Shown piece after piece: positions 37,604 through 59,556 of a stretch of 64,000 bases of DNA. Positions within the stretch are counted from its first letter, which is position 1; the number at the start of each line of letters is the position of its first letter. Position numbers and translations under genes: made by a program. The stretch is from Candidatus Micrarchaeota archaeon (GTDB lineage Archaea > B1Sed10-29 > JAJRYS01): positions 1 through 64,000 of the forward strand of contig CAZBZN010000001.1 of assembly GCA_964496415.1 (NCBI GenBank). Reading direction: 5' to 3'. A model generated the notes under the pieces. The model was given only the letters and a program-made list of their open reading frames with translations, was not told the DNA's origin and searched no databases.

Positions 37604-37741
37604 TGCAGGGGACGAGATTTGAACTCGCGTGGGCACTAAGCCACAGGGCCCTCAACCCTGCCCGTTTTCCGGGAGGCCCCGCCTCTTATTACTTTTATTA
37701 ACAGGAGGCAGGGGCCACCGTCCAGGCTCCGGCACCCCTGC
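37604..37741 (-). tRNA. tRNA-Leu(GAG) with a ~53-nt D-loop intron (about 37667-37719)
   Basis: GCAGGGG/CCCCTGC acceptor, CAGGG-TT-GAG-GG-CCCTG anticodon arm, long variable arm, TTCAAAT T-loop; BHB-like CTGG/CCGG helix; usual position between rpoD and rpl18e. Confidence 0.9.
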
Positions 37742-39423: not shown

Positions 39424-39909
39424 TTATTTTTTCTTTTTAGCAGGCTGCTGTTTTTTCCTTTGCACTCCTACGGTTACTCCTGTTCTTCCCATTGTTCTTG
39501 TTCTCTGCCCTCTTACTGGCAGTCCAAACATGTGTCTTACTCCTCTGTATGAACGCATGTTCATTTCTCTTTTCTTGTCATTTTGAATGGCAAATTCAAG
39601 ATCTGAACCAACTAAATGAATATCTCTTCCACTTTCAAAGTCCTTTCTTCTATTAAGCATCCATGTTGGAATGCCAAATTCTCCAGGAGAAGCTATTATC
39701 TTTTCTAATTTTTCTAATTGTTCATCAGAAAGATAACCTATTTTTGTGGACTTTTTAACTCCTTCTGTTTTTTCAAATTCCCCAGCTATTGCTTCCGCTA
39801 ACCTTTGTCCTATTCCTTTAACCATTCTTAAGGCTTTTATCATGTCGTAGTTTCCATCAACTTCGTAGCCTGAAAGCCTTAATCTTCCCTTGAATTCTGC
39901 TTCAGTCAT
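39424..39909 (-). CDS. rps13: 30S ribosomal protein uS13
   Basis: KGIG, WMLNRRKD, GLPVRGQRTR. Confidence 0.96.
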   Translation of the reverse strand: MTEAEFKGRLRLSGYEVDGNYDMIKALRMVKGIGQRLAEAIAGEFEKTEGVKKSTKIGYLSDEQLEKLEKIIASPGEFGIPTWMLNRRKDFESGRDIHLVGSDLEFAIQNDKKREMNMRSYRGVRHMFGLPVRGQRTRTMGRTGVTVGVQRKKQQPAKKKK

Positions 39910-39933
39910 TCATTCACCAGAATTTTTTATTTC

Positions 39934-39965
39934 CCTGTAGGTCACAGCCTTAGCGGCTCGCCAGG
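39934..39965 (-). promoter_or_regulatory. Candidate k-turn in the 5' leader of the rps13-rps4-rps11-rpoD operon
   Basis: TGGC-GA-GCC-GCTAA-GGC-TGT-GA-CCTA; TTTATAA box at about 40010-40016. Confidence 0.55.
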
Positions 39966-40039
39966 ATTTGGTTTTTTATAACAAGTGTTATGATTTGTGA
40001 ACTCTTTTGTTTATAAACCTTATGGAAACAGCCGCACCA

Positions 40040-40093
40040 CTGGGTTGAGGTCCGTAGGACCGAAGTCCTGTAAATGCAGGCTTTTTGAAGCCT
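40040..40093. repeat. Degenerate copy D of the tRNA-trailing repeat
   Basis: TTGA-GGTCC-GTA-GGACC-GAA plus AGGCTT-TTTG-AAGCCT: same architecture, different stem sequences. Confidence 0.5.
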
Positions 40094-40156
40094 TAGGGGA
40101 TTGAGAACCACGTTAGTGGTTCGAACATCCCCTGTCCGTAAACCGCACGCGGTTTA
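40094..40156. repeat. tRNA-trailing double-hairpin repeat, copy C
   Basis: Identical to 37541-37603; 1 nt from the tRNA-Ser discriminator. Confidence 0.92.
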
Positions 40157-40157
40157 A

Positions 40158-40325
40158 CGCGGCGGGGGAGATTCGAACTCCCGTGCCCCGAAGGGCACCA
40201 GCTCTCCAGGCTCACCTCACTTTGTTTAAGTTCACTTTTTAAGCAAAGTGAACTGGCGCAATACCATTGCACCCACAAGGGTGCAAACCAAATGGCTTGC
40301 CATTTGTGGTCTATGCGACCGCCGC
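40158..40325 (-). tRNA. tRNA-Ser(GGA) with two introns: 15/16 (40267-40310) and 30/31 (40211-40252)
   Basis: GCGGCGG/CCGCCGC acceptor, G73, TTCGAAT, variable arm TGCCC-TTCG-GGGCA; removing both BHB introns restores the AGTGGTA D-loop and CCAGC-CT-GGA-GA-GCTGG (82-nt mature tRNA). Confidence 0.92.
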
Positions 40326-40331
40326 ATGTTT

Positions 40332-41165
40332 TTATTTGATAACTTTTTCTGTTTTTATCATTTTTCCTTTTTTCGAATTTATTATTGTTTTTTTATCATA
40401 GAGAGCTGTTCCTATGGCTATAAGTTCTTGCTTTTCATTGATTATGGCTATTGGTGATCCTTTTACTATGTGTCCTTTTAGTTCTATTATTCCTGATCTG
40501 AATACTGGCGCTCCTTTTAGTATGTTTTTTTCAGCAGTTTCTTTTACTATTGCTTTTGGCATTAGTTTTACAGCGTACTCTAAGGGTTTTATTACTTCTT
40601 TTAGTAGCTTTGGATTTTCTTTTTCTAATGCTACCGCGTCTTTTAGTTTTGTTATGGTAATACATTCTTCTTCAGTGAATGGTCCTGAGCGGGTTCTTCT
40701 TAGTTGCAGCATTGTTGTTTTTGTTCCTAAGACTTTTCCAAAGTCTTCAACTAATTTCCTTATGTATGTTCCATGCTGGCAGCTTACTCTGAAAAGATAG
40801 TAGTTTTTTTTCTTTTGAATTAGTTCAAGCTCGTATATTCGTCTTATCCTTATTTTTTTCGAAACAGCTGAAAGTTCAGGTGGTTTTTGGTAGATTTTTC
40901 CAGTGAATTCTTTAAAAAGAGTGTTTATTTTTTCTTCAGGAATTTCTTCTTCTATTTTCATTAGGCAGACGTACTCTTTGTCATGTTTTTGCAGGTATTC
41001 TATTAGTTTTCTGCCTTTTCCTACTAGTATTGGCAGGACTCCTGTTACTTCAGGGTCAAGAGTGCCGCAGTGCCCTGCTTTTTCATTAAGGATTTCAGAT
41101 ACCCATTGAGTGACTTGGGCACTTGTAGGCCCTCTTGGTTTGTCAATTAAAATCAGAGCATTCAT
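40332..41165 (-). CDS. cbf5: H/ACA pseudouridine synthase Cbf5 (TruB family)
   Basis: IDKPRGPTS, GTLDP, YQKPP, GTYIR, LRRTRSGPF, PUA domain. Confidence 0.93.
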   Translation of the reverse strand: MNALILIDKPRGPTSAQVTQWVSEILNEKAGHCGTLDPEVTGVLPILVGKGRKLIEYLQKHDKEYVCLMKIEEEIPEEKINTLFKEFTGKIYQKPPELSAVSKKIRIRRIYELELIQKKKNYYLFRVSCQHGTYIRKLVEDFGKVLGTKTTMLQLRRTRSGPFTEEECITITKLKDAVALEKENPKLLKEVIKPLEYAVKLMPKAIVKETAEKNILKGAPVFRSGIIELKGHIVKGSPIAIINEKQELIAIGTALYDKKTIINSKKGKMIKTEKVIK

Positions 41166-58128: not shown

Positions 58129-59556
58129 TCATCCTTTAATACAGCCTATTGGTCTTACTCTTACTACTTTTTTAGCTAACCCGGCATTGTGCACTGCGTC
58201 AACTACTTCTGCTACGTCCTTGTAAGCTTCAGGAGCTTCTTCAGCTACTCCTGCGTAAGAATGTGCTTTAACTATGATTCCTTTTTCCCTTAGTCTGCGG
58301 ATTATTTCCTCTCCTCTCCAGGAATGTTTTGCTTTTGTCCTGCTCATTCTTCTTCCACCGCCATGGCAAGCGCTTCCAAAAGTCTTACTGGTTCCGGTTT
58401 CTGTTCCAACTAATATGTAAGAGTATGTTCCCATGCTTCCTCCTATGAGTACTGGTTGTCCTACTTCCATGTAATCTTTTGGCAATTCTTTCCTGCCAGG
58501 ACCAAAAGCTCTAGTAGCTCCTTTTCTATGAACATAAAGTTTTCTCTTCTCCCCGTCAACGTCATGCTCTTCTATCTTGCACGTGTTATGTGAGATATCA
58601 TAAAGTGTTTCCACTTTTGCTTCTGGAAGTACTTTTTCAAAAGCAGTCCTTGCCAAGTGAGCTATTACTTGCCTGTTCGCTAACGCGCAGTTTATTCCAG
58701 CATTCATTGCACCCCAGTAATCCTGTCCTTCTTTTGATTTTATAGGAGCACATACGAGTTCCCTGTCCCTTATAGGAATCCCGTACTTTTTTGAAGCCTG
58801 CGCAAGGATTGGAAGGTAATCCATTCCTATCTGATGCCCAAGAGCTCTTGAACCACAGTGAAATGATATTAAGACATCTCCTTTTTCCACTTTGAACACT
58901 TTTGCTGTTTTTTCATCAAACACTTCATCAACTACTTGAATTTCTAAGTAGTGGTTTCCTGAACCAAGAGTCCCTACTTGCTTGTACTGCCTTTTTTTTG
59001 CTTTGTGTGATACTTTTGAAGCATCAGCTCCGTCAACTCTGCCGAATTCTTCTATGAATTCAAGGTCTCTTTTTGTCCCATACCCTTGTTCAACAGCCCA
59101 AACAGCTCCTCCTTCTAGCACTTCATCAATTCCCTGTTCAGTTAGCTTTATTTCACCAGTGCTTCCAAGACCAGCAGGTACTGTTCTAAACAATTCGTTT
59201 ACTACCTCCTCTATTTTTTCCTTTACTTGTTCTTCTTTCAGGCCAGTCCTCATTGTTCTTACTCCGCAAGAAATGTCAAACCCTACTCCTCCTACTGAAA
59301 GTATTCCTTCATCTTCGTCAAAAGCACCTACTCCTCCTATTGGGAAACCGTACCCCCAGTGAGCGTCAGGCATTGCCATTGCTGCTTTAACAATGCCTGG
59401 AAGGCTTGCCACGTTCATGAGTTGTTCTCTTACTTTTTCATCCATTTCTGTAACTAGTTTCTCGTCAGCGTAAATCCTTGCAGGAACATTCATTTCACCA
59501 GTTTTTTCAATTTCCCATTCATAGTCACTTATCTTTTTCAAAGCTTTAATATCCAC
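58129..59556 (-). CDS. rtcB: RNA-splicing ligase RtcB
   Basis: MPDAHWGYGFPIG, DISCG, GSGNHYLE, HRKGAT, ACHG, EEAPEAYK; no intein. Confidence 0.97.
   Translation of the reverse strand: MDIKALKKISDYEWEIEKTGEMNVPARIYADEKLVTEMDEKVREQLMNVASLPGIVKAAMAMPDAHWGYGFPIGGVGAFDEDEGILSVGGVGFDISCGVRTMRTGLKEEQVKEKIEEVVNELFRTVPAGLGSTGEIKLTEQGIDEVLEGGAVWAVEQGYGTKRDLEFIEEFGRVDGADASKVSHKAKKRQYKQVGTLGSGNHYLEIQVVDEVFDEKTAKVFKVEKGDVLISFHCGSRALGHQIGMDYLPILAQASKKYGIPIRDRELVCAPIKSKEGQDYWGAMNAGINCALANRQVIAHLARTAFEKVLPEAKVETLYDISHNTCKIEEHDVDGEKRKLYVHRKGATRAFGPGRKELPKDYMEVGQPVLIGGSMGTYSYILVGTETGTSKTFGSACHGGGRRMSRTKAKHSWRGEEIIRRLREKGIIVKAHSYAGVAEEAPEAYKDVAEVVDAVHNAGLAKKVVRVRPIGCIKG

Follow-up and report, generated by a model that had tools for sequence, protein, structure and literature searches.

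The tRNA-Ser(GGA) gene of a Candidatus Micrarchaeota archaeon contains two short introns, and the second of these carries the heptamer AAAGTGA twice, one copy competing with the other for the same 5' arm. The question raised by this locus is whether the second intron is a selected bistable element, as a preliminary description had proposed, or a genuine splicing substrate in which mutation has produced a second, competing hairpin. The window, i.e. the whole stretch of DNA analysed here (64,000 nucleotides), corresponds to the beginning of contig C1 (its first 64 kb) in an assembly of 687 kb (hereafter G000; 41 contigs, ~36% G+C, 91% complete), and the identical sequence is present in DNA runs labelled hydrothermal vent metagenome. 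The G+C content of tRNAs is linked to growth temperature, and the 68% G+C of the exons together with the vent origin suggests that the source organism is a thermophile.

The unspliced gene, which is GC-rich, is missed by ARAGORN and by Rfam. When both introns (40310..40267 and 40252..40211) are deleted, ARAGORN reports tRNA-Ser(gga) of 82 bases, the first acceptor base of this spliced input being a padding letter, and the exon junction is identical to that of the intronless Ser(GGA) orthologue in genome G003. One copy of tRNA-Ser(GGA) was found in the G000 assembly. Permissive Rfam fragments at 39900-40450 (CrcZ, 15 bits; a tmRNA piece, 14 bits) are below threshold and were rejected as spurious, the tmRNA piece being the T-arm. 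Contigs of three DNA runs were compared with the locus. Those of two runs, which come from different studies and are recorded as 2018 and 2025, span 40169-40600 without a single difference, and one of these two runs may be the source sample; the third run has no coverage of the intron. No variants or indels of intron 2 occur in the two covering runs, which shows stability, not selection. The features of the locus are collected in Table 1.

Table 1. Coordinates (window numbering) of the tRNA-Ser(GGA) gene, of the elements of its introns and of the RNA ligase gene
Feature	Coordinates	Strand	Remarks
tRNA-Ser(GGA) gene, 168 nt	40158..40325	(-)	ARAGORN call on spliced sequence; exons match intronless G003 orthologue
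Exons of tRNA-Ser(GGA), n=3	40325-40311, 40266-40253, 40210-40158	(-)	
Intron 1, 44 nt, D-loop 15/16	40267..40310	(-)	best BHB candidate in gene; kept in two G004 Ser genes
Intron 2, 42 nt, anticodon stem 30/31	40211..40252	(-)	homologous-position intron in 6/18 genomes of the order
Stretch AAAGTGAAC, also in intron 2		(-)	
H helix 5' strand CGCC, exon, tRNA positions 25-28	40255..40258	(-)	used likewise in all homologues
5' bulge AG^T of intron 2, after CGCC	40254-40252	(-)	
h' 5' arm TCACTTTG	40244..40251	(-)	partners: distal copy (BHB), proximal copy (decoy), slipped intron 3' end (rod)
Proximal copy AAAGTGAACT (decoy strand)	40229..40238	(-)	in circle extends to 40227 (AAAGTGAACTTA)
Direct-repeat unit 1, CTTAAAAAGTGA, intron positions 10-21	40232..40243	(-)	self-alignment score 16
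Direct-repeat unit 2, CTTAAACAAAGTGA, intron positions 23-36	40217..40230	(-)	last 8 nt CAAAGTGA = h' 3' arm
GTGAG-GTGAG tandem pentamer	40211..40220	(-)	contains h' end, H 3' strand and 3' bulge nucleotides; basis of rod conformer
H 3' strand GGTG	40216-40213	(-)	
3' bulge nucleotides AG	40212-40211	(-)	
RtcB-type RNA ligase gene	58132..59424	(-)	PF01139, E 7.3e-174, open frame 479 aa

Several observations concern the surroundings of the gene. A 277-aa ORF at window 40332-41165 (-) ends 7 nt upstream of the tRNA 5' end on the same strand, and tRNA-Ser may therefore be co-transcribed with it or have its promoter within the coding sequence. Just 3' of the tRNA, GC-rich short hairpin modules form an array (window 40020-40157, (-)), and such modules likewise follow the tRNA-Leu at 37604 and tRNAs on G000 contigs C30 and C31. 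The module AAACCGCGTGCGGTTTACGGACAGGGGATGTTCGAACCA lies 3' of both tRNA-Ser and tRNA-Leu, and GGCTTCAAAAAGCCTGCATTTACAGGAC is found 3' of two Leu tRNAs and also within the array 3' of tRNA-Ser; over 40044-40140 the summed contig depth rises from ~10 to ~200 in two runs. In many tRNA genes of G000 (C2:1395, C1:73338, C1:73765, C9:15299 and C32:5066 among them), the heptamer CTTCAAA stands directly after the discriminator base or a few bases from it.

The sequence of intron 2 (reverse complement of window 40211-40252) is TTCACTTTGCTTAAAAAGTGAACTTAAACAAAGTGAGGTGAG, 42 nt, with AAAGTGA at intron positions 15-21 and 30-36, exactly as first described. All pairs that had been named for a splice-competent BHB built on the distal copy are present. 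The H helix, CGCC/GGTG, has 4 bp (3 G-C and 1 G-U) and is flanked by the bulges AG^T and AG^C, and h', TCACTTTG/CAAAGTGA, closes the first bulge with 8 Watson-Crick pairs. The outer helix h is 1 bp only, short of a strict hBHBh' motif, and the structure is therefore of the relaxed HBh' form. A BHB scan of the whole gene with every combination of H and h'/h gave 34 candidates, none of them using the proximal hairpin, and the two introns were clearly best (helices h' 8 and h' 6 + h 3). The label 30/31 depends on the BHB rule because the junction slides within the shared AG (CC^AG, CCA^G and CCAG^ give an identical mature tRNA); by this rule, reportedly due to Marck and Grosjean (2003), cleavage takes place after the second nucleotide of the 3-nt bulges that flank a 4-bp helix. 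Judged from its sequence, 40252..40211 is an archaeal protein-spliced intron of the relaxed HBh' kind and is presumably cleaved in vivo. The box C/D consensus is RUGAUGA for C and CUGA for D; neither TGATGA nor CTGA, nor any other recognisable functional motif, is present in the 42 nt.

The enzymes needed for such splicing are encoded. EndA would cleave both bulges, AG^T and AG^C, after their second nucleotide, and RtcB would then ligate the exons and circularise the intron. An EndA gene with PF02778 and PF01974 (N-terminal and catalytic domains, ~170 aa) lies at G000:C18:3427-3936 (+), and no paralogue that could be a second splicing-endonuclease gene was found at E<=10 in the 91%-complete assembly. 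G000 carries many non-canonical introns despite this single detectable EndA gene. As stated in an excerpt of PMC5829648, non-canonical introns are cut only by (alpha-beta)2 and epsilon2 enzymes; either a second EndA subunit is missing from the assembly or escapes detection, or the specificity of an alpha-type enzyme is broad here.

An exon-only pattern was searched in 18 genomes of the order, the class of the source organism comprising 31 genomes only. An insert at the same place was found in 8 of the 18, among which six have a T...GGYGAN intron (G000, G001, G004, G012, G015 and G016); the two remaining matches, G011 and G003:C22, differ in appearance. Metagenome contigs contributed at least three more 30/31 Ser introns among the matches listed. 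The pattern used there was loose and mostly matched unrelated GC-rich DNA (119 parsed, 118 stretches listed, 3 of them tRNA-Ser genes), and none of the tRNA-Ser genes among the matches listed was near G000. Two contig scans for a nearer relative returned only a G004 contig, and no congeneric genome was present in the collections searched, all relatives belonging to other genera. Paralogous introns occupy 30/31 in G004 Ser(GCT) and in G000 Ser(TGA). The latter gene (G000:C27:3758-3884 (-)) has a 45-nt intron with matching ends (ATCAC...GTGAGGTGAG) and a different interior, and has no D-loop intron. Two G004 genes are further disrupted: tRNA-Ser(GGA) (L022, G004:C28) by an apparent third insert of ~24 nt directly after the anticodon loop, and tRNA-Ser(GCT) (L021, G004:C2) by a long T-loop insert in addition to its 15/16 and 30/31 introns.

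The arm adjacent to the bulge is paired in 11/11 introns despite differing sequence (8, 6, 4, 4, 6, 6, 9, 10, 8, 3 and 4 bp). The H 3' strand was part of the selection pattern for 9 of these 11 introns, and therefore only the arm counts as independent covariation evidence. Because the position is kept and the arm pairs in all 11 introns, intron 2 and its BHB are old and under constraint. The 30/31 position in Ser tRNAs is conserved in two families of this order of small genomes, and introns at this position are an old feature of the order. Lengths are comparable (42 nt in G000 versus 19-45 nt in relatives, 37-45 nt in the same family), and the introns of homologues end in AT or AA besides AG. 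The H 3' strand is GGCG in all 10 other introns and GGTG here and in G000 Ser(TGA); the place of GTGAG-GTGAG is taken by GCGAG-GCGAG in both G004 introns and again by GTGAG-GTGAG in G000 Ser(TGA).

The proximal copy forms a hairpin over the 5' splice site (AGTTCACTTT/AAAGTGAACT, 10 Watson-Crick pairs, 6-nt loop), and the burial of this site by 10 bp, noted in the preliminary description, is thus borne out. We call this hairpin the decoy. A 10-bp run was obtained in 0/5000 loop shuffles, and pairing of the 5' site stabilises the nascent transcript by 12.0 kcal/mol versus 2.4-2.6 ± 1.5 in shuffles, a value that 0/1000 reach. Nothing of the kind was found in relatives. Among nine other 30/31 homologues, the longest Watson-Crick run between the 5' site and the loop is 2-5 bp (p 0.24-1). 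Likewise, no significant nascent trap was detected in nine other introns (eight homologues, without M148, and the paralogue), shuffles reaching the observed value in 136/1000 cases for Ser(TGA) and in 747-1000/1000 for the others, and eight other G000 introns have no 5'-site trap (147-946/1000). The proximal repeat is therefore absent from every relative found, all of other genera, which is the observation that the preliminary description itself had named as speaking against its view. In 6/9 homologues, no more than 1.2 kcal/mol separates the BHB from the local minimum-energy fold; bistability is therefore not a property of the intron family.

The intron had been called bistable. Its alternative folds are real, and with the BHB three folds compete rather than two. 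In a third conformer, the rod, the pairing of TTCACTTTGCTT with AAGTGAGGTGAG is shifted by five bases (GTGAG-GTGAG) and the helix stacks on CCAG/CTGG. The rod is the predicted minimum at 37 C, and is preferred only in the G000/G004 lineage, with its GYGAG-GYGAG tail. In the full precursor, the BHB lies 7.8 (37 C), 3.6 (60 C) and 1.9 (80 C) kcal/mol above the minimum, or 5.1-7.8, 3.2-3.6 and ~1.9 kcal/mol over the contexts used, the energy parameters being extrapolated at high temperature; the decoy fold lies 0.8, 0.9 and 0.5 kcal/mol above it at the same temperatures. The predicted share of the intron 2 BHB in the ensemble of the full precursor is 2e-6 (37 C), 1e-3 (60 C) and 5e-3 (80 C), and its distal arm is already in the minimum-energy fold at 75-80 C. 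According to these predictions, the AU-rich competing folds would be far less important at the temperatures of a thermophile.

The preliminary description also reported a 12-bp pairing across the ligated intron ends, and such a helix (8+4 bp) is indeed the minimum-energy fold of the circularised intron 2, at a predicted -7.8 kcal/mol versus -10.0 kcal/mol for the linear intron. The circle adds only two pairs (G-U and U-A) to the decoy helix. Since AG precedes the junction in the exon as in the intron, this is the decoy helix over again and not independent evidence.

The same design had been claimed for intron 1, and this holds only in a loose sense. Its BHB is composed of H GCAT/GTGC and h' CCACAA/TTGTGG, with bulges AG^A and AA^T, and competes with two hairpins, hp1 and hp2. 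The latter (TTGCACCC/GGGTGCAA) is a perfect 8 bp, includes the H 3' strand and buries the 3' site of the intron. This 3'-site trap is within the null (172/1000) and the circle of intron 1 has no cross-junction helix; what the two introns have in common is therefore a BHB that is not the minimum-energy fold, not a design. Between G000 and the two G004 genes, the BHB and hp2 have a single compensatory pair apiece, and the BHB arm has one broken pair in G004; covariation over these three sequences reaches significance for neither fold (155/500 and 177/500). At 37 C, the BHB of intron 1 (BHB1) is predicted to be ~150x more populated than that of intron 2 (BHB2), which suggests that intron 1 is removed before intron 2. 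No coupling is predicted between the introns, since the BHB2 penalty hardly differs with or without intron 1 (7.8 vs 7.2 kcal/mol).

The origin of the second AAAGTGA can be sought in the intron itself, where it belongs to a near-tandem direct repeat that includes the loop letters CTTAAA, superfluous for the decoy helix; a single duplication or templated mutation is therefore enough to account for it. The self-alignment score of 16 was reached by 24/1000 shuffles, which is moderately significant in an A-rich sequence, and Tandem Repeats Finder (score 30, 40150-40330) returned 0 rows. Since relatives are without the hairpin, we consider it probable that 40252..40211 is a genuine HBh' intron whose decoy is a lineage-specific mutational by-product, presumably neutral and not a selected switch, most likely due to near-tandem duplication. 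Duplication of the loop and 3' arm (CTTAAAAAGTGA / CTTAAACAAAGTGA) would yield the second AAAGTGA and keep the distal copy beside H; the BHB would survive and the proximal copy would become its competitor. With such a mutation, competition for the 5' arm and occlusion of the 5' splice site by a hairpin would follow automatically, and the shared AG bulge ends would give the helix of that hairpin again over the ligated intron ends. The effect would likely be a slower or more temperature-dependent removal of intron 2, probably after intron 1. Against a by-product stands the perfection of the decoy over 10 bp in an intron interior that is otherwise unalignable between genera, which could reflect a very recent event or purifying selection. 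In addition, as the intron is not longer than those of relatives, a simple 15-nt insertion into a 27-nt form needs either an ancestral intron that was unusually short or a deletion to compensate for it. Both positions at which the repeat units differ add to the length of a helix (an A pairs with T1 in the decoy, an inserted C with G9 in h'), and the change of GGCG to GGTG weakens the BHB yet retains the rod pair with A4, as selection for the alternative fold would predict, though this is a single event.

Repeats and related elements also occur in other tRNA introns of G000. The tRNA-Lys(CTT) gene (G000:C5:32241-32313 (-)) has a 47-nt D-loop intron (16/17) with a clear tandem duplication of a 15-nt hairpin unit (GAGCTTTTCGCTCCT / GAGCTTTCAGCTCTT, 0/1000 shuffles). 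A competing helix covers its 3' splice site (18/1000); no G000 intron besides this one and intron 2 has a significant splice-site trap, and the coincidence of trap and duplication speaks for the by-product reading of the decoy. T-loop inserts are present in two Gln tRNAs and one further tRNA (G000:C5:6924-6981 (+), C26:760-828 (-) and C25:657-760 (-)). A long element, GAGGGGCTGYGCCCCTTCTAACCCCC(C)AGGCAAC, is common to two of these, with a diverged form GAGGAGTTGTACCTCTCCTAACTCCTCAGGCAAC in Gln(TTG), whose insert contains its 3' arm AACTCCTCA twice (19/1000); this shared element suggests that the inserts are related or transposed introns.

A by-product could also have arisen by a template switch during replication, which would copy the complement of the 5' arm: in this quasi-palindrome correction, an imperfect complement would have been overwritten by a perfect copy that includes the exon AG. 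The inverted repeat is indeed perfect over 10 nt and reaches into the exon, no net insertion is required as the intron has the length of its relatives', the Ser(TGA) paralogue has an imperfect complement, GAAGGAT, at the matching place, and Mönttinen & Löytynoja (2022, PMC8794818) document that perfect RNA hairpins can arise by template switching. This origin leaves the repeat of CTTAAA in direct orientation unexplained, however, and no outgroup is near enough for reconstruction; we hold it to be quite unlikely. That chance or an assembly artefact produced the decoy is scarcely credible: the loop is A-rich and of low complexity and the case is known from a single genome, but the decoy was matched by none of the shuffles (0/5000 and 0/1000) and contigs of two different studies agree over it without a difference.

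Selection rather than chance, as first proposed, would make the intron a bistable or kinetic gate, in which a co-transcriptional proximal hairpin hides the 5' splice site until the distal copy displaces it, and the anticodon-stem intron would be delayed until other maturation is done, or its splicing would depend on temperature. The decoy far exceeds chance, the predicted barrier from decoy to BHB (an estimate in local context) drops from 15.1 (37 C) to 11.6 (60 C) and 7.2 kcal/mol (75 C) while the share of BHB2 rises as given above and its distal arm enters the minimum, the GGTG change retains the rod pair, and the excess of BHB1 over BHB2 agrees with the processing order in an excerpt on Cyanidioschyzon merolae (PMC3728597). 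These points are outweighed, in our view, by the absence of the decoy in nine homologues and the paralogue, by a BHB that is a local minimum in 6/9 homologues, by the lack of a general trend among eight other G000 introns, by a BHB2 penalty that removal of intron 1 leaves unchanged, and by an architecture that one duplication explains. Conservation of both folds with compensatory changes, as a switch would show, was not found, the rod being restricted to the G000/G004 lineage. A selected design is thus unsupported and such a gate unlikely. Its specific version as a built-in thermal or kinetic gate, in which the decoy and the five-base slip lock tRNA-Ser(GGA) in an unspliceable state below growth temperature and the GC-rich H wins near 70-80 C with this intron removed last, appears improbable; in that case, temperature or the completion of earlier maturation would govern the supply of the tRNA reading UCC/UCU. 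It is highly improbable that the cross-junction helix was selected for the circle, either to hold the ends in a nicked helix for RtcB or to give a long-lived functional circle. RtcB is encoded, the minimum-energy circle is a 12-bp rod over the junction, and archaeal circular tRNA introns are known (see also PMC4238349 and PMC12558985); yet 10/12 pairs are those of the precursor helix and the other two have a chance expectation of ~0.14 (estimate), the circle is predicted to be less stable than the linear intron, that of intron 1 has no such helix, no C/D-box or other recognisable motif is present, and the junction context is not conserved because AT and AA are found beside AG at the intron ends of homologues.

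With the decoy as a probable mutational by-product, the locus offers a clean natural case of a BHB intron that may have gained a strong misfolding trap through a small duplication within itself, in a tRNA that is essential and apparently present in one copy, and a convenient substrate for studying how archaeal splicing endonucleases locate a BHB that is a minority conformer. In the literature consulted on archaeal tRNA introns with alternative or sequestering structures, no such gate is described; a true gate would be the first structure-gated protein-spliced tRNA intron besides the C/D-box tRNA-Trp. The intron of archaeal pre-tRNA-Trp is reported to double as a box C/D guide RNA (Clouet d'Orval, 2001; Singh, 2004, the latter cited in PMC4090602), the BHB alternating with the guide fold. 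Both introns have mutually exclusive pairings of which one is splice-competent. Unlike the tRNA-Trp intron, with its demonstrated function and conserved C/D boxes, intron 2 has an alternative fold that is not conserved, and because it is without boxes the analogy does not apply.

The pre-tRNAs of C. merolae, in which BHB free energy and the order of processing are correlated and the BHB of the anticodon arm comes last (Soma et al. 2013, an excerpt of PMC3728597), are similar in that several BHB motifs occur in one pre-tRNA and that a far larger population is predicted here for BHB1 than for BHB2. They differ in being eukaryotic nuclear transcripts with an experimental order, whereas the order here is predicted and the low occupancy of BHB2 comes from competing folds, not from a weak BHB. 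With the hairpins attributed to template switching or duplication (PMC8794818, in part), intron 2 has in common a perfect stem, attainable in one step, in fast-evolving sequence, and differs in that its event has no close outgroup and is not reconstructable. Finally, non-canonical relaxed-BHB (HBh'/hBH) introns are described for multi-intron tRNA genes of Thermoproteales, Nanoarchaeum and ARMAN/Micrarchaeota (excerpts of PMC4090602 and PMC4033280, which name Marck & Grosjean 2003, Sugahara 2007-2009 and Fujishima 2011 as sources), and the present gene extends by one the list of disrupted tRNA genes known from ultrasmall archaea. As in those genes, the intron lies within a stem and has a 4-bp exon-intron central helix, 3-nt bulges with the splice sites and one flanking helix h'; there are several introns per gene, standard tRNA finders miss them, and EndA and RtcB are encoded. 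What sets tRNA-Ser intron 2 apart from them is its perfect internal decoy hairpin and a 30/31 Ser position kept across two families.
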